44,936 bases of DNA from Myxococcota bacterium (GTDB taxonomy: Bacteria; Myxococcota_A; UBA796; CAJQPC01). Of this stretch, positions 18,746-44,448 are shown one piece after another. Both the position numbers and the translations under genes were made by a program. The stretch is taken from positions 1 through 44,936 of the forward strand of contig JAKLKD010000022.1 of the NCBI GenBank assembly GCA_023150845.1, given 5' to 3'. The notes beneath the pieces are model-generated. The model was given only the letters and a program-made list of their open reading frames with translations. It did not search any database and was not told where the DNA came from. The first letter of the stretch is position 1. Each line of letters opens with the position of its first letter.

Positions 18746-20122
18746 TCACTCCATCGGCGTCGGCGGGCGAGGCGCGGGCAGCCGGACGCCCTTCTTCTTG
18801 GCCTCAATGAGCAGGGCGAGGCCCTCCGAGCCGCTGGTGATGTGCACCCAGGCGGTCGGGTCGTCGAGGAGGCCCTTCACGAAGAGCGACGGCGTCGCCA
18901 TGACCCCGGCCTCCCAGCCGTGGGCGACGTCGCTGCGCACCCGGTCGCTCGTGGCCTCGTCGCTCATGCAGGTGTCCAGGGCGGCCAGGTCGAGGGAGAC
19001 CTGCTGGGCCATGAACCGGATGTTCTCTTTGCTCAGCACGGCCTGGTTCTCGAACATCTGGGCGTTGAGCTCCCAGAAGCGGCCCTGCTGGGCGGCGCAG
19101 ACCGCGGCGGCGGAGGCCATACAGGCCTCGGCGTGGCCGGAGGAGGGGATGCGGTCGTTGCAGACGTTGGAGAGGGGATAGTGCTTGTACACCACCCGCA
19201 GCTCGGGGAGCTTGGCCGCGACGGCCTTGAGCTCCTTGGCCATCATCGCGCAGTGGGGGCACTGGTAGTCGGCGAACTCGACGACGGTGTAGGGCGCGTC
19301 GGGTTTGCCCCAGGCGGGCTCGTAGCCGTGCAGGTTCACCTTGCCCGCGACCTGCTCGTAGAGGCGGCCGTAGTCGGCGCTCTCGGCCTTGCCTTCGCTG
19401 ACCGCCTCGATGGCCTGGGCCGCGGGCGGGAGCTTGGTGTTCTCATAGAGGAAGTAGCCCAAGAGCCCGCCCACCACGGCGCCCATGAGGCCCAGGGGCA
19501 AGGAGCGATCCTTGTAGCCGGTGAGCGCGGCGGGGACCTGATCCATGAAGGGCTCGCCGCGGAGCGCCTGGTGACCGGCGACGACGAGCAAGGCGTTGAT
19601 GATGTAGGTGGTGACGCAGAGGATGCAGAAGGCGCCGAGCTGCATGCTCACGGCGCCCAAGAACAAGGACACGCCGAGAGCGAGGATCGACGTCGCCAAG
19701 ATGAAGGCCGCCGCGCGGTCGAGGCCGGGGCGATCCCGCCAGGCCTGCACCCCGACGACGGTGATGGCGCTGTAGAAGGCGAGGCCAAAGAGCGCGATGG
19801 GCACGCCGCCGACCTCGGACCAGGCCGAGGTGTTCACGAGGTCGCAGTTCAGGACGTCGTTGATGTTGCAGACGCTCGCGCCGCCCGCGAGGGCGACCTT
19901 GTGCTGCACGGCGAGGTACGCCGAGAGCCCCGCGCCGTACGCGCCCAAGGCGGCGACGCCGAGGGTCGGCGTGCGGGCCATGGCGCCGCCACACAGCATG
20001 AGCCCCGACACGAGCCCGGTGATCAGAGCGGGGGTCTCTTGGCCGTTCCCGAGCAGCGCCATGGCGCCGCCACCTGCGGCGAGGCCGAGCACGGGGAGCA
20101 AGAGGGTCATCAAGCGCTTCAT
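18746..20122 (-). CDS. Vitamin K epoxide reductase (VKOR) domain fused to a periplasmic thioredoxin/DsbA-like domain
   Basis: There are five TM segments. The VKOR loop Cys pair is CNINDVLNCD and the active-site CxxC is in a TM segment (FCILCVTTY). The C-terminal thioredoxin-fold domain carries EFADYQCPHCAMM (CPHC). Confidence 0.85.
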   Translation of the reverse strand: MKRLMTLLLPVLGLAAGGGAMALLGNGQETPALITGLVSGLMLCGGAMARTPTLGVAALGAYGAGLSAYLAVQHKVALAGGASVCNINDVLNCDLVNTSAWSEVGGVPIALFGLAFYSAITVVGVQAWRDRPGLDRAAAFILATSILALGVSLFLGAVSMQLGAFCILCVTTYIINALLVVAGHQALRGEPFMDQVPAALTGYKDRSLPLGLMGAVVGGLLGYFLYENTKLPPAAQAIEAVSEGKAESADYGRLYEQVAGKVNLHGYEPAWGKPDAPYTVVEFADYQCPHCAMMAKELKAVAAKLPELRVVYKHYPLSNVCNDRIPSSGHAEACMASAAAVCAAQQGRFWELNAQMFENQAVLSKENIRFMAQQVSLDLAALDTCMSDEATSDRVRSDVAHGWEAGVMATPSLFVKGLLDDPTAWVHITSGSEGLALLIEAKKKGVRLPAPRPPTPME

Positions 20123-20166
20123 CGTCTCTCCGAGAACGTGCAGGGGCAGCGGGGGTGGACCTCAGC

Positions 20167-23433: not shown

Positions 23434-23790
23434 ATGGAATGGGGTCGCGAGCTAGGAGGCGCTTGGGTCGGTCGCTCTGCGGCGGGTCTGCTCGCGGGCG
23501 CGTCTCGTGCGGGCGTGCGGGTCGGTGTGGTGCTCCGGTACTTCACCTTCGCGATGCTGCTCGTCGCCTCGTTGATGTTCTACGTCTGGTCTCGGGTGGA
23601 CGTGCGCGCCAGCGCCGCCGAGCTCGACCGGGTGAACACCGCCCTCGCCACGCGCCAGGCCGAACAGGAGCGCCTCCGCCTTGAGCTGGCCACGCGCCAG
23701 GACCTCGCCCGGCTGGGCCAGGTCGGCGCCGCCATGGGCCTCGTCTCCGACGTTCAAGTCCGCACCGTCACGGTCGGGGAGGGCCTGTGA
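23434..23790 (+). CDS. ftsL: Cell-division protein FtsL-like (single TM plus coiled coil)
   Basis: It has a TM helix (FTFAMLLVASLMFYVW) then a leucine-zipper-like helix (LDRVNTALATRQAEQERLRLELATRQDL). It sits between rsmH and ftsI. An AGGAGG lies 7 nt upstream. There is no strong family signature. Confidence 0.6.
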   Translation: MEWGRELGGAWVGRSAAGLLAGASRAGVRVGVVLRYFTFAMLLVASLMFYVWSRVDVRASAAELDRVNTALATRQAEQERLRLELATRQDLARLGQVGAAMGLVSDVQVRTVTVGEGL

Positions 23791-25880
23791 ACAAGCCCGT
23801 CGCCGACGATCTGAACGCCTGGCTCAGCGCGATGCTCGCGCCGGATCCCGGGCCCGTGGATCGGGCGACGCTCATGGCCCGGGCGCGCTTCCGCGCCTCG
23901 CTCATCATGGTCGGCGTCATCTTGGGCTACGTCGTGCTCGCCCTGCGCGCCGTGCCCCTGATGCTGATGCCCGATGACCGGCTCCAGGCCAAGGCCGCGA
24001 CGCAGTTCCAGGCCGCGGTGGAGGTTGAGGCGCCTCGGGGGGACATCATCGGCCGAGACGGCACGGTGCTCGCCACCTCCGTCGAGATGCCCGCGCTGCG
24101 CGCGGACCCCTCCAAGCTCACCGATGAGCAGGTCGGCCCCTTGGCCCGGGAGCTCGCGGGGCTCCTGCACCTCGACGCCGCGGACCTCGCCGAGAAGCTC
24201 GGCCGCCGGGAGCGCCGCGACATCCTCCTCGCCAACCAGATCTCCCCCGACGCCGTCGAGACCGTCGAGAAGCTCGCCCCGGGCGCCTTGTGGGTGGACT
24301 ACCAGTCCACGCGTTTTTACCCGGGCCGCACCCTGGCCTCGTCGCTCCTGGGCATGGTCGGCCAGAACAACCAGGGCCTTGAGGGCTTGGAGCGCAGCCT
24401 CGACAAGCAGCTCCGGGGCAGCACCTACCGCTTCGTGCAGCAGCGTGACCGCCGCGGGCGCAACATCTCCACGGCCGGGGACGCCCGGGCCCGGGCCCAC
24501 GCCGGGGACTCGGTCACCCTCACCGTCGAGCCCTTCATCCAGCGCGCCGCTGAAGACGCCCTGGACCAGATGATGATCACGTCGGCGCCCGCGGCGGCCA
24601 TCGCCGTCGTCATGGACGTGAAGACCGGCGAGATCCTCGCCATCGCCAACCGCCCCAACGCGAACCCCAACGACGTCTCGACCATCGACGTCTCGGCGAT
24701 GCGTAACCGCGCCGTGGCCGACGCCCACGAGCCCGGCTCGGTGCTCAAGCCCTTCGTCGTCGGCCTCGCCGTCGATAAGGGCATCACCAAGGCCGAGGAC
24801 CTCATCGACTGCGAGGGCGGGAGCTGGCGCGTCGGCAGCAGCATCATCAACGACGACCACCCCCACGGCGTCGTGACGCTCTCCGAGGTGGTGAAGTACA
24901 GCTCCAACATCGGCACCGCGAAGCTCGCCTTCGCGCTCGGCGCTGAAGAGATGATGGAGGGGCTCAAGCGCTTCGGCTTCACCCAGCCGACGGGCCTCAA
25001 CCTCCCCAGCGAGGTCTACGGCTTCTTGCGGAACCCCAAGGGCATCCGCCCTATCGAGCTGGCGACGACGGCGTTCGGCCAGGGCATGACCGCGACCGCG
25101 GTGCAGCTCGCCGCGGCCTTGGCGGCGGTTGGCAACGACGGCGTGCGGATGAAGCCCTACCTCGTCTCCGAGGTGCGGGACCGCCTGGGCTACGTCCGCC
25201 TGCGCAACCGCCCGGTGCGGGTGGAGCGGGTCATCTCCGAGGAGTCCGCCGACAGCCTCGTGAAGATGATGATCACCGTCTTGGAGACCGGCGGCACGGG
25301 CACGAAGGCGCGCCCCGAGGGCTTCTCCGCCGCAGGCAAGACCGGCACGGCCCAGAAGGTCGTGGACGGCCACTACTCGGCCACGGCGCGGGTGTCGTCC
25401 TTCATCGGACTCGCCCCGGCGAACGACCCCCGCCTCGCCATCGTGGTCATGGGCGACACGCCCACCATCGGCAGCAAGTACGGCGGCATCGTCTCCGGCC
25501 CGGGCTTCTCGCTCATCGCCACCCGGGCCCTGCGTTACCTCGGCGTGCCCGAGGACGTGCCCATCGAGCCCAAGCCTAAGGTCGCCCCGCCGCCCCCGGC
25601 GCTCGGCCCCGACGGCTTGCCCCTGCCGGTGATCCCCCCGCCCATGGCGATGCCCGCCCCCGTGAAGGTGGCGCCGGGCCCCGCCCAGCTCACCTGGCTC
25701 GCCGACGGCCGCATGACCGTTCCCGACCTCACCGGCCGCTCGATGCGTGACGTGCTCGTCGCCGTCGATGGCGCCGGGGTTGAGGTCCGCCTCGTCGGCT
25801 CAGGCCGCGTCGTCTCTCAAAACCCCGCGCCGGGCTATGCCTTGGCGGCGGGGGACCGGCTGGAGGTCGTGCTGCAATGA
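23787..25880 (+). CDS. ftsI: Peptidoglycan D,D-transpeptidase FtsI (PBP3) with a Pro-rich linker and a C-terminal PASTA-like domain
   Basis: The transpeptidase motifs SVLKPF (SxxK), YSSN (SxN) and KTGTAQ (KTG) are present, as is the PBP dimerisation domain. The C-terminus reads PKPKVAPPPPALGPDGLPLPVIPPPMAMPAPV then TVPDLTGRSMRDVLVAV…VRLVGSGRVVSQNPAPG (PASTA-like). Confidence 0.9.
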   Translation: MNKPVADDLNAWLSAMLAPDPGPVDRATLMARARFRASLIMVGVILGYVVLALRAVPLMLMPDDRLQAKAATQFQAAVEVEAPRGDIIGRDGTVLATSVEMPALRADPSKLTDEQVGPLARELAGLLHLDAADLAEKLGRRERRDILLANQISPDAVETVEKLAPGALWVDYQSTRFYPGRTLASSLLGMVGQNNQGLEGLERSLDKQLRGSTYRFVQQRDRRGRNISTAGDARARAHAGDSVTLTVEPFIQRAAEDALDQMMITSAPAAAIAVVMDVKTGEILAIANRPNANPNDVSTIDVSAMRNRAVADAHEPGSVLKPFVVGLAVDKGITKAEDLIDCEGGSWRVGSSIINDDHPHGVVTLSEVVKYSSNIGTAKLAFALGAEEMMEGLKRFGFTQPTGLNLPSEVYGFLRNPKGIRPIELATTAFGQGMTATAVQLAAALAAVGNDGVRMKPYLVSEVRDRLGYVRLRNRPVRVERVISEESADSLVKMMITVLETGGTGTKARPEGFSAAGKTGTAQKVVDGHYSATARVSSFIGLAPANDPRLAIVVMGDTPTIGSKYGGIVSGPGFSLIATRALRYLGVPEDVPIEPKPKVAPPPPALGPDGLPLPVIPPPMAMPAPVKVAPGPAQLTWLADGRMTVPDLTGRSMRDVLVAVDGAGVEVRLVGSGRVVSQNPAPGYALAAGDRLEVVLQ

Positions 25881-38506: not shown

Positions 38507-39502
38507 TCAGCTCGCGGGCAAGCCGTCGCGGCGGGCGCGGGCGGTGTTGGTGAGCTCCCCCTCAAAGCCGAAGGTCCCGGCGACGATGATGGCTTGGTCG
38601 TAGGCGTTGAAGGCCTTGGCCACGAGCACCTTTGTCGACTTGTCGACGCCCTCGCGGTAGAGCGACGCCTGCTCCTCGGTGAGCCGGCCGGGGGGCGGCG
38701 CGCGCAGCATGTCCTCGCGGAAGCTGATGTAGGCGTCGCCGAGGTCGAGGAGGCCCCGGAGGATCCACTCCGGCTCCCGCTGCTCGACGACGTGCACGAG
38801 CATGGCCTCGGCGTCTAAGATGTGCCCGGCGCGGGCCTGCATGTCGCGCTTCTGCTTCCGCTCAGGCCCGTCGAAGGTGAGCGCCGCGGCCTGGTCGAGC
38901 TCGTAGCGGGCGAGGTGGTACCAGCCTTTGCCGAGGATCCAGCCCAGCTCCTCGTCGGTGCGGGTGGCGGAGAGCGCGGCGTTGAGCAGCTCGCGCCCCT
39001 TCGCCGCTCGGCCCGAGCGCAGCATCGCGACGCCCCGGGCCACGTCGTAGGTCACCCGGTCGTTGAGGCTCAGGCCGCCGGTCGTCGGCACCCGGGAGAA
39101 GGCCTTGAGGGCCTCCTCAAAGCGGCCGAGCTCCTCCAGGCAGAGGCCCCGGCGGAAGTGTACGCTCGGGGCCAAGGACTCCGGCGGCGATTGGGTGAGG
39201 AGCAGATCATACGCCGAGATGGCGGTCCCAAGCTCGCCGCGCAGCTCATAGACGACGCCGAGGTGGTAGAGCGCCTCGGGCGGGCCGTCGGGGAGGCTCG
39301 CGAGGTAGACGAGGCGCTGCTCGGCGCCCTCGAGGTCGTCGTTGATGAGGCGGGTGTAGGCGTCCTCAAACAGGGCTTCGGGGCTCTGGGTGGCGAAGAC
39401 CCCGACCAAGGCCGCCGGGGGCTGGTGCTGGTCCAAGGGATAGAGCACGACCGGCGCGCGAGCGGCGCAGGCGAGGAGCGTGAGTAGGCTGAGCGTCATC
39501 AT
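38507..39502 (-). CDS. TPR-repeat lipoprotein
   Basis: The lipoprotein signal is MMTLSLLTLLACAARAP (lipobox LLAC). TPR-like helical repeats follow (AEQRLVYLASL…ALYHLGVVYELRGELGTAISAYDLLL…FRRGLCLEELGRFEEALKAF). The start is placed at the MM codons (39502) rather than the listed 39604. Confidence 0.7.
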   Translation of the reverse strand: MMTLSLLTLLACAARAPVVLYPLDQHQPPAALVGVFATQSPEALFEDAYTRLINDDLEGAEQRLVYLASLPDGPPEALYHLGVVYELRGELGTAISAYDLLLTQSPPESLAPSVHFRRGLCLEELGRFEEALKAFSRVPTTGGLSLNDRVTYDVARGVAMLRSGRAAKGRELLNAALSATRTDEELGWILGKGWYHLARYELDQAAALTFDGPERKQKRDMQARAGHILDAEAMLVHVVEQREPEWILRGLLDLGDAYISFREDMLRAPPPGRLTEEQASLYREGVDKSTKVLVAKAFNAYDQAIIVAGTFGFEGELTNTARARRDGLPAS

Positions 39503-39851
39503 GGGACAGGAGACCCTGGCGGTGGCGCGGAGGTTCCCACCTCGGCGCCTGAGCAAAAAAGTGGCCTCCACCCTGGCCGTGTGAGCGTTGGGGTCCTCCT
39601 CCACTCAGGAGGGGGGAGCCGCGTGTCCGCTTCAGGCTTCCTCGCGAGGAGGCGTGCACACCACGGAGAGGGGCGGGTCCCAGGACATACTTGTGGAGGA
39701 ACCACGGTCGCTCTGTACTCGAACCGGGCAGAGGCCGATCTCACTATACCTGAGCGGGGCGAGGCTTGCGCGGAGGGTGGCGCGAAGGCTAAAGCGTCAC
39801 GCGGCTCATCGACGCGGCTGGCGTCAGGCGGAGCCCGGAGACGGTGTCCTG

Positions 39852-41315
39852 GTGACTGAACTCCTGCTCCTGGGCGGCCACGCGCTGCTGGTGGCGACGC
39901 TCTCGCTCACCGGGCTGCATCGGCTGTGGCTCACGGCGGCGTACTGGCGCACCCGACACCAGGTCACGGCGCGTGTGGCCCTCGACGAGGCCGCGCTGCC
40001 CGTCGTCACCGTGCAGCTCCCGGTCTACAACGAACGGTACGTCGTCACCCGGCTCATCGACGCCGCCGCGGCGCTGGACTGGCCCCGGGACCGCCTGGAG
40101 CTGCAGATCCTCGACGACAGCGACGATGACACGACGGCCCTCGCTGAAGCCGCCGCGGCGCGGCACCGCGCCCGAGGCCTCAACGTCGCGGTGCTGCGGC
40201 GCCCCGACCGCCAGGGGTTCAAGGCCGGGGCCTTGGCCTGGGGGTTGGAGCGCGCCCGGGGCTCGATCATCGCCATCTTTGACGCGGACTTTGTGCCGCC
40301 TGCGGACTTCTTACGCCGCGCCGTGCCCGCCCTCGGGCCCGAGGTCGGCATGGTCCAGGCGCGCTGGACCCACCTCAACGAGGGCGAGTCGTGGCTCACC
40401 CGGGTCGAGGCCATGCTCTTAGACGGCCACTTCGTCATCGAGCACGCGGCGCGGGCGCGCTCGGGGCGCTGGTTCAACTTCAACGGCACGGCGGGGCTCT
40501 GGCGCCGCGAGGCCATCGTCGCCGCGGGCGGCTGGCAAGGCGACACGCTCACCGAGGACCTCGACCTCTCGTACCGCGCCCAGCTCGTGGGCTGGCGCTT
40601 CGTCTACCTCCCCGAGCTCGCCGTGCCCGCGGAGCTCCCCGGGGACATCCTCGCGTTTAAGGGCCAGCAGCGGCGCTGGGCGAAGGGCTCGATCCAGACG
40701 GCGAAGAAGCTCCTGCCGAGGCTCTGGGGCTCCGCCGCGCCTTGGTCGGTGAAGCTTGAGGCCACGGCGCACCTCTGCGCGAACCTCGCTTACCCCGGGG
40801 TGCTCCTGCTCTCGGTGATCACGCCCGTCGCCGCGCTCCAGCGGGTCGGGCACCCCCTCGTCGAGCCGCTCCACGCCTTGTTCTTCACCATCGCCGCGCT
40901 GTCCTTGGGCCTGTTTTATGGGGTGAGCGCCGGGGCGCACCACACCGACTGGCCTCGTCGCCTCGGGCGGGTGCCCTGGGCGATGGCGCTCGGCGCGGGC
41001 ATGGCGGTGAACCAGTCCCGGGCGGTGTTTGAGGCGCTGTTCGGCGAGGTCGGGGCCTTCGTGCGCACCCCCAAACGTGGAGGCCCGGGCGGGGCCGGGC
41101 GCTACACATTGGCCGGGGACGGCAACGCGGCCTGGGAGATCACCCTCGGCCTCGCGCAGCTCGTCGGCGCCGTGGCCTGCCTGCGCGCCGGGTCCTGGGG
41201 CTCGGCGCCGCTCCTGGCCCTCTTCGGCCTCGGTTACCTCTGGGTGGGCCTCGGGAGCCTCAGCCCGCCTAGCCCGGCGCCCCTGGAGGCCGCTGAAGCT
41301 GAGGCAGCCGGGTGA
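39852..41315 (+). CDS. Processive family-2 glycosyltransferase (cellulose/chitin/hyaluronan-synthase-like, QxxRW class)
   Basis: It has an N-terminal TM helix, then DxD (LQILDDSDDDT), IFDADFVP, and the processive-synthase Q(Q)RRW motif (FKGQQRRWAKGS), then C-terminal TM helices. The start is placed at GTG 39852 and is uncertain. The listed 39588 N-terminal extension looks non-coding. Confidence 0.8.
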   Translation: MTELLLLGGHALLVATLSLTGLHRLWLTAAYWRTRHQVTARVALDEAALPVVTVQLPVYNERYVVTRLIDAAAALDWPRDRLELQILDDSDDDTTALAEAAAARHRARGLNVAVLRRPDRQGFKAGALAWGLERARGSIIAIFDADFVPPADFLRRAVPALGPEVGMVQARWTHLNEGESWLTRVEAMLLDGHFVIEHAARARSGRWFNFNGTAGLWRREAIVAAGGWQGDTLTEDLDLSYRAQLVGWRFVYLPELAVPAELPGDILAFKGQQRRWAKGSIQTAKKLLPRLWGSAAPWSVKLEATAHLCANLAYPGVLLLSVITPVAALQRVGHPLVEPLHALFFTIAALSLGLFYGVSAGAHHTDWPRRLGRVPWAMALGAGMAVNQSRAVFEALFGEVGAFVRTPKRGGPGGAGRYTLAGDGNAAWEITLGLAQLVGAVACLRAGSWGSAPLLALFGLGYLWVGLGSLSPPSPAPLEAAEAEAAG

Positions 41316-42540
41316 ACGGCGTCGGCACGGTGAGGGCGCCCGGCGCGACGGCCTCGGCTGGGGCGGCGGTGGCCTCAACACCGATGGCGCGCAGAGCCTC
41401 GGGGCGCTCACACCCGGCGACGATGAGCTCGTAACGTTGGGCGAGGCGCGCGAGCATGTAGGCCCGCTGAAGCCCCGCGCCAGACGGTACCGGCCCGGTG
41501 AGTAGGCTCTGCCAAGGCGGGGCGACGCTCGCCATGAGGGCGGCGAAGGCGCGCTCGCCGGAGCCCTCCCCAGCGCCGTCGGGGCAGGCCGCGTCGAGGA
41601 CGAGGCGGGCGCCGTCGAGGAGGGGAGGGGAGGGCGAGAGCGCGAGGTAGGTCGCCGCCCGGCTCGCCTGGTAAAAGTTCGCCGCCTTGGCGCGGGGCAC
41701 GCGGAGCACGCAGGCGGAGACGGGCTCCGGCACGGTCCACCAGGGGTCTTGGGCGGCGGCGGCGGCGCGTAGAGCGGCCCGGGGCTCCCCGAAGGTCCAG
41801 CGGCCGTCGCCCAACGAGAGCAAAGCGAGGCGGGTGCCGTTGCGCTCGCCGAGGGCGTCCACGGCGTCGCGGAAGGGGTTGCCCTCGACGCGGCCCACCT
41901 GCACCGCCGGGTCGCAGACCATGGCCCGGGCGTGTAGCGCGGCGAGGGTGTCCCGGCCGCCGCAGCCGACGGCGCTGGCCTTGTGCCCGCCGGAGAAGCC
42001 CGCGTACTGGTGCAGCTCGACGACGCCGACGGCGAGGGTCAGCTCGGCCTCGGCGATGGCGTGGGCGACCTGGCAAGGAACGCCGCCGACGAGGCCAAGG
42101 TCGGCGGTGTCGTCGGGGTCGGAGTTCAGGACCGGCCAGCCGCAGGCGGCGCGCAGGGGCGCGAGCTCGGCCTCGGTGAGCGGCCGGTGCAGGCCGAGGC
42201 CGACGACGACGGTGACCTCGGCGGGGGCGCACTCCCCGAGGGCCCGGCCTAGGGCGGCCAAGACCGTAGGGGTGTGCAGCGGGCGGGTGAGGTCGGGGAC
42301 GGCGATGGCGAGGCGACGGAGCCCCGGGGGCAGGCTCAGCCCGGCGAGGGCGTCCTCGAGCGCGCCCACCACAGAAGGAGGCTCAGCCACAGCGCCGGAT
42401 GCTCGATCCACGGGACCCACCACACCTCCTGCCAACCTCGGGCATCGTAGTCGGCGAGCGCCAGGTAGGACAAGGGGCACAAGGACACGAACACGAGCCA
42501 GGGCCACACCCCGCGGAGCATGGCCGGGGCCAAGGCCCAC
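41269..42540 (-). CDS. LarA-like (DUF2088, lactate-racemase family) protein; start uncertain
   Basis: The N-terminal DUF2088 pattern is …RLAIAVPDLTRPLHTPTVLAALGRAL and HQYAGFSGGHKASAVGCGG (the H-x3-GFSGG-x-K signature). The full ORF of 423 aa matches LarA length but would overlap the upstream GT-C gene by about 205 nt. In-frame GTG codons at roughly 42390 and 42372 are alternative starts. The 3' end overlaps the convergent GT2 gene by 47 nt. Confidence 0.55.
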   Translation of the reverse strand: MGLGPGHAPRGVALARVRVLVPLVLPGARRLRCPRLAGGVVGPVDRASGAVAEPPSVVGALEDALAGLSLPPGLRRLAIAVPDLTRPLHTPTVLAALGRALGECAPAEVTVVVGLGLHRPLTEAELAPLRAACGWPVLNSDPDDTADLGLVGGVPCQVAHAIAEAELTLAVGVVELHQYAGFSGGHKASAVGCGGRDTLAALHARAMVCDPAVQVGRVEGNPFRDAVDALGERNGTRLALLSLGDGRWTFGEPRAALRAAAAAQDPWWTVPEPVSACVLRVPRAKAANFYQASRAATYLALSPSPPLLDGARLVLDAACPDGAGEGSGERAFAALMASVAPPWQSLLTGPVPSGAGLQRAYMLARLAQRYELIVAGCERPEALRAIGVEATAAPAEAVAPGALTVPTPFTRLPQLQRPPGAPG

Positions 42541-43475
42541 AAGGCGTACCAGGGGTGCACGACCGGGGAGAGCACGAGGAGCGCCCCAGAGACGTGCAAC
42601 ATCAGGCGATCCGGGCTCGGCCGCTGGCGCAAGATCGCCGCGCAGTAGAGCCCGCCCAAGGCCACGCCCAGCCAGCGCGCGCGCCGCCCGTCGCCGACGG
42701 CGGCCTCCAAGAACGAGAAGGCGAGGCCATTAAAGGCCCAGGCCTCGTAATACCGCCCGAAACCCCGGCCCAAGGTGGCCCCGGCGTCGAGGAAGGGCAG
42801 GCCCAAGGCCAAGAAGCTGAGCCCACCCAACACCGCGCCCCAGGCGAGGCCCCGGCTCGGCGCCCGGGCGAGTCCGAGCAAGGCGAGGCCCGGCAAGAGC
42901 TTCACCGAGGCCCCCGCCCAGGCCCAGAGCGCGGAGAGCCCCGGCCGCTGGGCCGTCATGAAGCTCAAGGTCATCGCCAAGGCGGCGGGCCCCTCCAGGT
43001 GGCCGCTCCCGGCGGTCTCCAGGATCGGCAGGGGGTGCAGCGCGTAGGCCACTGGGGCCCAGGCGCCGACCCCCCGCGCCGGGCACATCCGCCAGAGCGC
43101 CGCCGCGACCCCAAGATCACAGGCGCCGGACAGCACCTTCCAGCCCAAGGGCGACGTGGTGACCGCGACCATGGCCCGAAACAGCCACAAAGCCCCCGGC
43201 GGGTAGATCGTCGAGACGTCCTTGTGGTTGACCTGGGCCCAGACCTCGTCCCGCAGGTGCGCGAGGGCGGGGTCGTTCGGCGCGTAGAGGAAGGGATTGA
43301 GCCCGGCGGCGATCACCTCGCCCTCCCAGAGGTAGCGGTACACGTCGTCGGAGAGGCTCGCCGGGGAGAGCAGGGTGAGGAGCCGCAGCCCCGCGCCCAA
43401 GGCGAGCCACCCCCACGCCGCCTCAGGGCGCGCACGCACCGCCCAGGCCGCGCCGAGCGCCCCGAGGGACCACAA
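42336..43475 (-). CDS. GT-C-fold integral-membrane glycosyltransferase (DUF2029/GT87-like)
   Basis: It has about 10 predicted TM helices, is W-rich, and has an early-loop acidic motif SDDVYRYLWEG typical of GT-C/DUF2029 lipid-linked sugar transferases. Confidence 0.6.
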   Translation of the reverse strand: MWSLGALGAAWAVRARPEAAWGWLALGAGLRLLTLLSPASLSDDVYRYLWEGEVIAAGLNPFLYAPNDPALAHLRDEVWAQVNHKDVSTIYPPGALWLFRAMVAVTTSPLGWKVLSGACDLGVAAALWRMCPARGVGAWAPVAYALHPLPILETAGSGHLEGPAALAMTLSFMTAQRPGLSALWAWAGASVKLLPGLALLGLARAPSRGLAWGAVLGGLSFLALGLPFLDAGATLGRGFGRYYEAWAFNGLAFSFLEAAVGDGRRARWLGVALGGLYCAAILRQRPSPDRLMLHVSGALLVLSPVVHPWYALWALAPAMLRGVWPWLVFVSLCPLSYLALADYDARGWQEVWWVPWIEHPALWLSLLLWWARSRTPSPG

Positions 43476-43716
43476 GCTCGCGAGTCCGACGAAGGCCGTC
43501 GCGGCGCCGCGCAGATCGCCCAGAGCGACGACCCCCGCCGCGCAGAGCGCGCAGAGGACGCCGCCGATCAGCGCGAGGGGCGCAGCGCCGGGTCGCTGAG
43601 AGGGGTTCAGGTGAAGCCTCGGGACAGACTTGACATGACAAGAGAGACCGCGTACCCATTATCGGGTTAAAAGTGTGTGTGTGCCTCGCAGCGATGACGC
43701 TGCACTCGGAGTCGTC

Positions 43717-44448
43717 ATGTCCCGCGCGCGCCTCGTGCTCCTCCTGATGCTGGCCCCGACGCTGCTCGCGGCCAAGTGCCGCGACAAGAAGATCGAGGAG
43801 GTGCCTGATGACATCGTCACCGTAGACCCAGCGCCGGTGGATGTCGCGCTCCAGATCATCTCCATCGACCCGGCGCTCGGTGAGGCCAACAAGCCCTTCG
43901 CCGCGCGTATTTACGGCTCAGAGTTCGCCCAGGGCTCCACGGTGAGCTTCAGCGGCACCCCGGCCTCGTCGGTCACCTTCGTCGATGAGAACACGCTCGA
44001 TGTCATGGTCCCGGCCTTGCCCGAGGGCCCCGTGGACATCACGGTCAAGATCCCCAGCGGCCAGCAGTCCACCCTGCGCCGCGGCCTCTCGCTCATGGCC
44101 GCCAACGCCAACGCCGTCTGCGACAAGGCCACCATCTACTTCGACCTCGACAGCAACACGCTCCGCCCCGACCAGCGCGCCGCGCTGAACGCCCTGGTGC
44201 CTTGCCTCTCGCGCCGCACCGAGCGTATCCGCCTGGAGGGCCACACCGACGAGCGCGGCACCACCGACTACAACCTCGCCTTGGGCCAGCGCCGGGCGAA
44301 CGCCGTCCGGGAGTACCTCGTGAGCCAAGGAGTGCCCCCCTCTCGCATCGACTCCGTCACCTACGGCGAGGAGCGCCCCACCCGCGCCGGCAGCGGCGAG
44401 GACACCTGGGCCGCCAACCGCCGCGTCGAGCTCCGGGTGACCCGGTGA
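43717..44448 (+). CDS. OmpA-family peptidoglycan-binding lipoprotein (Pal-like) with an IPT/TIG-like β-sandwich domain
   Basis: The signal is MSRARLVLLLMLAPTLLAAKC. The OmpA_C domain reads IYFDLDSNTLRPDQRAALNALVPCL…IRLEGHTDERGTTDYNLALGQRRANAVREYLVSQGV…NRRVELRV. The start is ATG 43717, which has a GGAG upstream. Confidence 0.85.
   Translation: MSRARLVLLLMLAPTLLAAKCRDKKIEEVPDDIVTVDPAPVDVALQIISIDPALGEANKPFAARIYGSEFAQGSTVSFSGTPASSVTFVDENTLDVMVPALPEGPVDITVKIPSGQQSTLRRGLSLMAANANAVCDKATIYFDLDSNTLRPDQRAALNALVPCLSRRTERIRLEGHTDERGTTDYNLALGQRRANAVREYLVSQGVPPSRIDSVTYGEERPTRAGSGEDTWAANRRVELRVTR

Follow-up and report, generated by a model that had tools for sequence, protein, structure and literature searches.

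A cellulose-synthase-type GT2 gene, a LarA-like gene and a GT-C transferase gene at a conserved locus in Myxococcota

The window analysed here is contig JAKLKD010000022.1 of a Myxococcota bacterium (assembly GCA_023150845.1), a stretch of 44,936 nucleotides. Three genes near its right end encode a family 2 glycosyltransferase (GT2), a LarA-like protein, and a membrane protein with the glycosyltransferase-C (GT-C) fold, and together they span positions 39852..43610 after correction of the gene boundaries. All three genes are real. The initial annotation of this region described a polysaccharide module in which the LarA-like protein could modify a sugar or hydroxy-acid substituent. We put the probability at about 50% that the GT2 and GT-C genes are a conserved two-gene module for an envelope glycan, and that the LarA-like gene is a lineage-specific, independent gene located between the two halves.

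The GT2 gene is located on the plus strand (39852..41315; 487 amino acids, GTG start). An NCBI protein from a Myxococcota bacterium matches it with 100% identity. Metagenome contigs of identical sequence carry the same gene call, which supports the start together with the N-termini of the homologues. A longer open reading frame (ORF) of 575 residues, from 39588, is rejected, as the homologues begin at the equivalent of 39852. The extension (39588..39851) is taken as non-coding because a 6S RNA gene occupies 39561..39737 on the opposite strand. The LarA-like gene is on the minus strand (41269..42372; 367 amino acids), with a GTG start at 42372 and alternatives at 42369 or 42390. It was previously given 423 residues, up to position 42540, since the longest open frame had been chosen and long chance frames arise in G+C-rich DNA; the G+C content is 72% here and about 70% in the window as a whole. 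The longer form is not supported by the homologues, which have about 350-370 residues, or by the in-frame stop codons in relatives. A database copy with 100% identity has 367 residues. In the two nearest relatives (85% identity), stop codons close the frame 23 and 26 codons before the position that corresponds to the GTG at 42372, and in many others they do so 1-11 codons before it.

The GT-C gene is located directly upstream of the LarA-like gene, on the same strand (42336..43610), as had been noted for the protein with the SDDVYRY motif. Its stop codon is at 42336, and with the short form of the LarA-like protein the overlap between the two genes is therefore about 37 nucleotides (42336..42372, minus strand, in different frames and read from the sequence), rather than the 205 first described. 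The value is 34-55 nucleotides depending on which GTG is used. Such an overlap suggests co-transcription and translational coupling of the two genes. The junctions in relatives, from tblastn coordinates, are again short gaps or overlaps. On the other side, the 47-nucleotide convergent overlap between the GT2 and LarA-like genes (41269..41315) is set at both ends by stop codons and is real as reported, and it covers only the non-conserved C-terminal tails of the two proteins. No intrinsic terminator-like site was detected in 39400..43900.

The 5′ end of the GT-C gene requires a larger correction. Both the initial annotation and the public one place it at 43475, a TTG codon that gives a protein of 379 residues. 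No ATG, GTG or TTG codon is found in this frame between the upstream stop codon and 43475. The 45 codons upstream of 43475 align with the N-termini of the GT-C homologues (LGDLR..A..FV...W plus one more hydrophobic helix), and they correspond to a confident first transmembrane helix in the structure model. The public annotation therefore begins 45 codons late, and this helix is lost. The stretch GAGGCTTCACCTG contains a CTG codon at 43610 with GAGG 6 nucleotides upstream of it, and is identical in two related loci (L085 and L087). The GT-C proteins of these loci are 82% identical to that of the window, and their amino acids downstream diverge in frame. Based on the lack of a standard start codon, the N-terminal alignment, the modelled helix and the conserved CTG and GAGG, we conclude that the gene probably starts at this non-canonical CTG (43610..43608, minus strand; putative start and Shine-Dalgarno sequence together at 43608..43619), which gives a protein of 424 residues. 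The corrected starts of the GT-C and LarA-like genes are important for expression of the proteins.

In the GT2 protein, a transmembrane helix at the N-terminus is followed by a GT-A domain on the cytosolic side and by about five helices at the C-terminus. It matches the Pfam families Glyco_tranf_2_3 (E value 1.4e-25), Glyco_trans_2_3, and Glyco_transf_21 (2.4e-11). The NCBIfam models that it matches (CelA, MftF and PgaC) are all far under their cutoffs, and it fails the BcsA equivalog models TIGR03030 (112 bits, cutoff 699) and NF008558 (79 bits, cutoff 992). The sequence motifs first quoted for this protein (DDSDDD, FDADF and QQRRW) are all present, and so is TED. Across 18 homologues with 51-88% identity, D88/D89, D144-A-D146, T-E235-D236 and Q272-Q-R-R275-W276 (QQxRW in the family) are invariant or nearly so. 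A second segment, F403-V-R405-T406-P407-K408 (FxRTPK in the family), is also invariant and resembles the FxVTxK gating loop. In the model it falls where a poorly predicted loop begins, residues 410-421 of which have predicted local distance difference test (pLDDT) scores below 50.

The AF2 model of GT2 has an overall pLDDT of 86. A Foldseek search with this model finds BcsA as the top match (E value 5.5e-18), with a query TM-score of 0.67-0.68 over about 505 alignment columns, covering the whole length of the protein. The next matches are the archaeal PcManGT (a minimal enzyme), hyaluronan synthases, chitin synthase Chs1, plant CesA, and cyclic glucan synthase. The membrane helices of the model appear to be of the same kind as those of BcsA. 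Judged by its motifs and modelled fold, GT2 is a membrane glycosyltransferase of the cellulose-synthase type (BcsA/CslA/HAS), and the earlier assignment to the cellulose, chitin and hyaluronan synthases (HAS) is upheld. It shares with BcsA, HAS, chitin synthase and plant CesA/Csl proteins the D, DxD, TED and QxxRW motifs, and with BcsA the fold of the whole protein; it also has the segment that resembles the gating loop. Its processivity and sugar specificity can only be inferred.

There are also clear differences from BcsA. GT2 has 487 residues compared to more than 700 in BcsA, and its score against the NCBIfam CelA model is low. No Pfam match to a PilZ domain is found in GT2, and there are no BcsB-, BcsC- or BcsG-type partners among its neighbours. 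Unlike the BcsA-type pathways, GT2 is partnered here by a GT-C protein; to our knowledge, a GT-C partner has been described for no synthase-dependent pathway.

The GT-C protein of the window has no match in Pfam in either its 379- or its 424-residue version (E values up to 0.01, GT87 included). The family assignments proposed at the outset hold for PF09861 in the LarA-like protein and for the GT2 families. GT87 (PF09594) is missed by the window protein itself and matched by 14 of its 21 aligned homologues (best E value 1e-14). Precomputed matches to the MptA_B_family (PF26314) are common among the homologues. Searches of the Protein Data Bank (PDB) by sequence, with the single protein and then with the family profile, give no meaningful match either. 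With both kinds of sequence search empty, a fold search was needed. The AF2 model has a pLDDT of 90.3 and a predicted TM-score of 0.91, and its top Foldseek match is PimE (E value 4.4e-4, TM-score 0.53-0.60). ALG3, GPI-MT-I and ALG6 come next, followed by ArnT. The Foldseek probability is 1.00 for PimE, ALG3, GPI-MT-I and ALG6, with TM-scores of 0.5-0.65, and 0.99 for ArnT, with TM-scores of 0.33-0.40. The model therefore identifies the SDDVYRY protein as a membrane glycosyltransferase with the GT-C fold, in agreement with the original proposal, and by its homologues it is probably of GT87/MptA_B-like type.

The invariant residues of the GT-C family are S87-D88-D89-x-x-R92, K237 and H352-P-W354-Y355, and Y93 is present in at least 90% of the sequences. 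The S87-D88-D89 motif comes after the transmembrane helix at residues 66-79, on the predicted first extracytoplasmic loop. PimE, ALG3, GPI-MT-I, ALG6 and ArnT all use polyprenyl- or dolichyl-phosphate sugars. For PimE, the use of a polyprenyl-phosphate-sugar donor has been established, and residues D58/Y62, K195 and W319/H322 have been shown to be catalytic or to bind phosphate (PMC12041525). D89...Y93, K237 and the H-P-W motif of the GT-C protein mirror these residues, with the match to D58/Y62 based on spacing. By analogy, the protein presumably takes its sugar from a polyprenyl-phosphate donor and acts on the periplasmic side. It differs from PimE in being only 18% identical, in missing the Pfam GT87 family, and in having a Gram-negative host, a member of the Myxococcota. 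We know of no phosphatidylinositol mannosides from Myxococcota.

A GT2 gene and a GT-C gene that stay adjacent across many genomes are also seen in GtrB/GtrC, ArnC/ArnT, CsbB/YfhO and Ppm1/PimE. The conserved GT2 here differs from the short GtrB/DPM1-type enzymes of such pairs, as it is of the cellulose-synthase type and has a QxxRW motif and a membrane domain of several helices, so that the acceptor of the GT-C protein is a likelier product for it than the lipid-linked donor. In a different genomic context (locus L166), a second, 200-residue GT2 gene precedes the GT-C gene (9823-10425, minus strand of that locus). Its best NCBIfam matches, all weak, are synthases of polyprenyl- or dolichyl-phosphate sugars (PgfS, AglJ, Dol-P-hexose transferase and PpgS), and from these it is a candidate for the enzyme that makes the donor for GT-C. 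No such gene adjoins GT-C in the window.

The LarA-like protein contains the HQYAGFSGGHK motif, as first reported for the minus-strand ORF, and it scores 83.4 bits against Pfam Lar_N (PF09861; gathering score 23.3). Its best NCBIfam match is the malate racemase LarAH5 at 131 bits, although the cutoffs of the malate racemase models are missed (131 bits compared to 462 for NF052595, and 110 compared to 500 for NF052593). A search of the PDB with the family profile finds Mar2 (6D6Z) with an E value of 4e-35. Among 19 sequences of the family, H62, H121, K131, H147, Y234, Q235, R238, Q302 and R303 are invariant, while at least 90% have D27 and R30. In the alignment with LarA and Mar2, K131 (in AGFSGGHK) is at the position of Lys184 of LarA, which tethers the nickel-pincer nucleotide, and H147 is at that of the nickel ligand His200. 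H62 (in GLGLHRP) and H121 (in ELHQYAG) correspond to the catalytic residues His108 and His174. The contacts by Arg75 and Gln295 of LarA are retained as R30 and Q235, while Lys298 is conservatively replaced by the invariant R238.

By its sequence the protein therefore looks catalytically competent, with all the nickel-pincer and catalytic residues kept, which the inactive paralog that had been considered would lack. We predict that it is a cytoplasmic, nickel-pincer-dependent racemase or epimerase of 2-hydroxy acids. No larB, larC or larE gene is found among the window ORFs scanned, consistent with what had been noted before. The family begins about 20-25 residues before the D-x-T-R motif. The protein is without the N-terminal β-hairpin (residues ~1-55 of LarA), and in-frame stops in relatives exclude a longer form.

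The residues of the active site place the protein in LarAH Group 25, a group listed as of 'unknown function', with members Htur_2912, HFX_2777 and RoseRS_3215, and with helicase genes as its published context in haloarchaea (Desguin et al. 2020, PMC7583248). The signature of key residues of this group is D R H H Q Y K H F Y Q S/T R G Q R (PMC7583248). D27, R30, H62, H121, Q122, Y123, K131, H147, Y234, Q235, S237, R238, G300, Q302 and R303 match the row for RoseRS_3215/Htur_2912, with the F position left unmapped, and apart from D27 and R30 these positions are invariant in our family. The protein is 36-42% identical to the haloarchaeal and Roseiflexus members. It differs from Group 25 as catalogued in two respects. 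The branch in Myxococcota and Acidobacteriota is without the N-terminal β-hairpin of about 45 residues that the haloarchaeal members keep, and in one clade the gene is in a probable operon with a GT-C gene.

Malate racemases have His or Gln and Lys at two specificity positions (PMC11770544). With Q302 and R303, the LarA-like protein has the polar and positive pair of Mar2/LarAH6 and LarAH5. It differs from these enzymes in having Arg in place of Lys298 and of the second specificity Lys, and in being shorter at both ends. The Q302/R303 pair suggests that the substrate carries a second group that is anionic or polar. Moreover, since the carboxylate-binding residues are retained, a free 2-hydroxy acid is a better candidate than a lipid- or nucleotide-bound sugar. 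Activity on sugar acids is known elsewhere in the LarA superfamily, as in gluconate 2-epimerases (PMC11770544).

The gene neighbourhoods were compared in two sets of loci. The first is centred on LarA-like genes and contains 80 loci from species-representative genomes, 46 of them of Myxococcota type (at least 49% identity) and 34 distant. Flanking sequence suffices in 43 of the Myxococcota-type loci, and 33 of them have a GT-C gene directly upstream of the LarA-like one. The GT2 gene is convergent with and adjacent to the LarA-like gene in 16 Myxococcota-type loci, while another 10 have it at a distance of up to 10 kb. Many Myxococcota-type metagenome-assembled genomes (MAGs) repeat the order of a GT-C gene, a LarA-like gene and a convergent GT2 gene, so the three genes are indeed syntenic in many relatives. 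Neither GT-C nor GT2 is near the LarA-like gene in 7 of the 43.

In all 34 distant loci, which include haloarchaea, Roseiflexus, Thermomicrobiales and Bradymonadales, the LarA-like gene has neither a GT-C nor a related GT2 neighbour; two of them have a weak GT2 match (~25% identity) about 10 kb away. The gene also stands alone in an Acidobacteriota MAG, at 67% identity. The haloarchaeal homologues are next to Lhr and Dna2-type helicases, as published for Group 25. Other neighbours of the distant homologues (a metallo-β-lactamase-fold protein, a Rieske protein and an ABC ATPase) are functionally uninformative. A locus labelled Oligoflexia (L168) has a GT2 gene convergent with a LarA-like gene.

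The second set contains 79 metagenome loci centred on GT-C. Where the GT-C protein is at least 40% identical to that of the window, the LarA-like gene follows it in 16 of 17 loci, and below 40% it is mostly absent. The GT2 gene directly adjoins GT-C without a LarA-like gene in 9 convergent, 5-6 divergent and 1 co-directional loci. The pair without the LarA-like gene is found in at least 16 loci, in three orientations, besides L084 and L167 described below, and the LarA-like gene thus does not accompany the pair wherever either is found.

The same chromosomal slot can be followed in loci that have no LarA-like gene. In one (L084, a 9.4-Mb genome) the order is Pal, GT-C, an arylsulfatase-type gene and GT2, and in another, on a 344-kb contig (L167), it is GT2, GT-C, Pal, TPR, rimP and nusA. 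The middle gene of L084 was considered as a BcsG/OpgB-like phosphoethanolamine or phosphoglycerol transferase and rejected, as NCBIfam places it with the aryl- and choline-sulfatases. Across the loci, sulfatase, trypsin-like, FG-GAP/MopE, amidohydrolase and VWA genes occupy or split this slot. The genes inserted between LarA-like and GT2 were also considered as further glycan-modifying genes, but they encode trypsin-like, FG-GAP/MopE, amidohydrolase, VWA or DUF4423 proteins or have no match. Inserts between GT-C and LarA-like in some loci are likewise unrelated genes. In L166 the GT2 gene is convergent with GT-C outside the Pal/NusA context.

These arrangements give good support to a cooperation of GT2 and GT-C, since their adjacency outlasts changes of orientation and of genomic context. 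The two proteins are also complementary in topology, with one predicted to polymerise from the cytosol outward and the other to act outside from a lipid-linked donor. As for the substrates and the direction of this cooperation, we infer the following. By analogy with BcsA, HAS and CslA, the membrane-embedded GT2 would be an inverting enzyme, its GT-A domain adding sugars from nucleoside diphosphate donors to the growing end of a β-linked chain. The chain, or a lipid-anchored primer, would be threaded through the helix bundle of the enzyme itself and gated by the FVRTPK loop. The PimE/ALG3-like GT-C protein would have its catalytic Asp pair, D88/D89, in the first loop on the periplasmic side. 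It would take a sugar from a polyprenyl-phosphate donor and pass it to an acceptor at this face of the membrane, for which the product of the neighbouring GT2 is the most economical candidate. Together the two would produce a glycan or lipoglycan, branched or extended, in the periplasm or the outer leaflet.

The LarA-like gene would be a lineage-specific insertion that is now part of the GT-C transcription unit. Although probably co-transcribed with GT-C in this Myxococcota lineage, the protein most likely has its own metabolic role, namely the racemisation or epimerisation of a free 2-hydroxy acid with a second anionic or polar group. The two-group substrate is suggested by the specificity positions, which are Gln and Arg where the malate racemases have His/Gln and Lys. 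An independent role appears likelier than one in the glycan because the same subfamily, with the same residues, stands alone in several phyla, and because the carboxylate-binding residues of the free-acid racemases are retained.

Several observations weigh against a GT2/GT-C module with an independent LarA-like gene. The LarA-like gene follows GT-C in 16/17 loci and has GT-C upstream in 33/43, with overlapping or very short junctions, and an operon that persists in this way among proteins of 50-65% identity may indicate that the functions are shared. No GT2 gene is found in 13 GT-C-centred loci that have enough flanking sequence. Inheritance of the block could account for part of the GT2/GT-C adjacency, and the synteny arguments within Myxococcota are weakened as the surrounding block is conserved by descent. 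In addition, GT2 could be a non-processive glycolipid synthase, given its Pfam match to Glyco_transf_21.

This last point leads to an alternative that we consider unlikely. In place of a polysaccharide synthase, GT2 would be an enzyme that glycosylates lipids, of the monoglucosyl-diacylglycerol or ceramide-glucosyltransferase type, with GT-C extending its glycolipid at the periplasmic face to a lipoglycan like phosphatidylinositol mannosides or lipomannan, and with the LarA-like protein unrelated. QxxRW-type GT2 enzymes of about 480 residues include the cyanobacterial GlcDG synthase and the rhizobial processive glycolipid synthases. PimE, the nearest structural relative of GT-C, has a glycolipid acceptor, and the E value of 2.4e-11 for Glyco_transf_21 is in keeping with such an enzyme. 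A protein like diacylglycerol kinase is encoded in the window, though 27 kb away. On the other hand, the fold of the whole GT2 protein, including the C-terminal helices, fits best to BcsA and the hyaluronan synthases, and the FxRTPK segment that resembles the gating loop is invariant in the family.

It is doubtful, on the present evidence, that the LarA-like protein is an integral part of the glycan pathway, supplying a stereoisomer of a hydroxy, aldonic or uronic-type acid that is attached to the GT2/GT-C polymer or built into it. The co-orientation of the GT-C and LarA-like genes, the overlap of stop and start, and the adjacency kept in the loci counted above are as expected for such a role. 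The catalytic residues are all intact, sugar-acid activity is present in the superfamily (gluconate 2-epimerases; PMC11770544), and in L168 as well a GT2 gene is convergent with a LarA-like gene. However, the same-residue subfamily is found without glycosyltransferases in haloarchaea, Chloroflexota, Bradymonadales, Acidobacteriota and 7 Myxococcota-type loci, the GT2/GT-C pair is conserved without it, and unrelated genes occupy the same slot in other loci. Moreover, the module contains no ligase, acyltransferase or ketal transferase that could attach a hydroxy acid. The role in glycan modification that the initial annotation suggested for this protein is not supported. A more specific form, in which a Group 25 epimerase was recruited in one Myxococcota lineage into the GT-C operon to place a stereoisomeric hydroxy-dicarboxylic or aldonic acid on an envelope glycan, with a backbone extruded by GT2 and decorated in the periplasm by GT-C from a lipid-linked sugar, is improbable. 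If true, it would connect nickel-pincer enzymes with the making of glycans for the first time, and would also be the first case of a synthase-dependent pathway in which a GT-C takes part.

The absence of any functional module, with the three genes being neighbours through descent of a housekeeping block (dcw, 6S RNA, Pal, nusA), is improbable: the flanking Pal-like, TPR, rimP-nusA-infB, ftsZ and 6S RNA genes are equally conserved, but GT2 and GT-C are adjacent even after rearrangement to divergent and co-directional orientations and in L166, which is without the Pal/nusA context, and unrelated insertions part them by no more than a few kb.

GT2, GT-C and the LarA-like protein are each a new member of a known family, and Group 25 has already been catalogued. 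Our literature searches found no description of a pairing of a cellulose-synthase-type GT2 with a GT87-like GT-C, or of an N-terminally truncated branch of Group 25 in an operon with GT-C, and a search on DUF2029/GT87 together with Myxococcota or cellulose-synthase-like proteins found nothing. We regard the locus as a moderately interesting lead and not as an anomaly. The pair of GT2 and GT87-like GT-C is widespread and highly conserved, with the division and cell-wall (dcw) cluster on one side and the Pal/CpoB-like genes on the other. Cooperation of the two enzymes, if real, would define an envelope glycan or lipoglycan of Myxococcota outside the known Wzx/Wzy, ABC-transporter and synthase pathways. 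For LarAH Group 25, which is without an assigned substrate, the GT-C operon in Myxococcota is one of few clues from gene context, and the Q/R specificity signature narrows the substrates to screen.

The block around the three genes contains the dcw cluster, a TPR gene, 6S RNA, GT2, LarA, GT-C, a Pal-like gene, a CpoB-like TPR gene and rimP-nusA-infB. The 6S RNA (SsrS) gene of the window (39561..39737, minus strand) is a full-length match to Rfam RF00013, with 57.7 bits compared to a gathering score of 46.4. Relatives also have a 6S RNA gene on this side, next to the GT2 start in L004, L085 and L084 and at a distance of about 1.1-1.2 kb in L005 and L007. The TPR protein is encoded at 38507..~39502 (minus strand), and its start must be below 39561 because of the 6S RNA gene. 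The module is flanked on the other side by a Pal-like OmpA-domain protein with an extra TIG/IPT domain (43675..44448, plus strand). Relatives have a YbgF/CpoB-like TPR protein on the far side of the Pal-like gene, and the Pal/TPR/rimP-nusA-infB arrangement beside the dcw cluster is conserved across Myxococcota-type loci.

In the intergenic region that separates the start of GT-C from the divergent Pal-like gene, the stretch TTAACCCGATAATGGGTACGCGGTCTCTCTTGTCATGTCAAGTC (about 45 nucleotides, ~43617..43670) is identical at the nucleotide level in L085 and L087, despite the 82% identity of the neighbouring GT-C protein. It contains the only sigma-70-like promoter match of the region, on the plus strand and directed towards the Pal-like gene. 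An Rfam scan of this conserved leader upstream of the GT-C gene finds no family. The stretch may be a regulatory element shared by the two divergent genes.

Further ORFs are located elsewhere in the window. An ORF of up to 1095 residues (4593..7877, minus strand) matches Pfam MVP_shoulder (E value 4e-19), Vault repeat and Vault_3, and is similar to the major vault protein. Its 5′ part overlaps a ComM-like Mg-chelatase ORF on the opposite strand (6988..8658, plus strand), and its true start is therefore probably further downstream. An FtsI-type transpeptidase with a C-terminal PASTA domain is encoded at 23685..25877 (plus strand), and a VKOR domain fused to a DsbA-like thioredoxin domain at 18749..20161 (minus strand).

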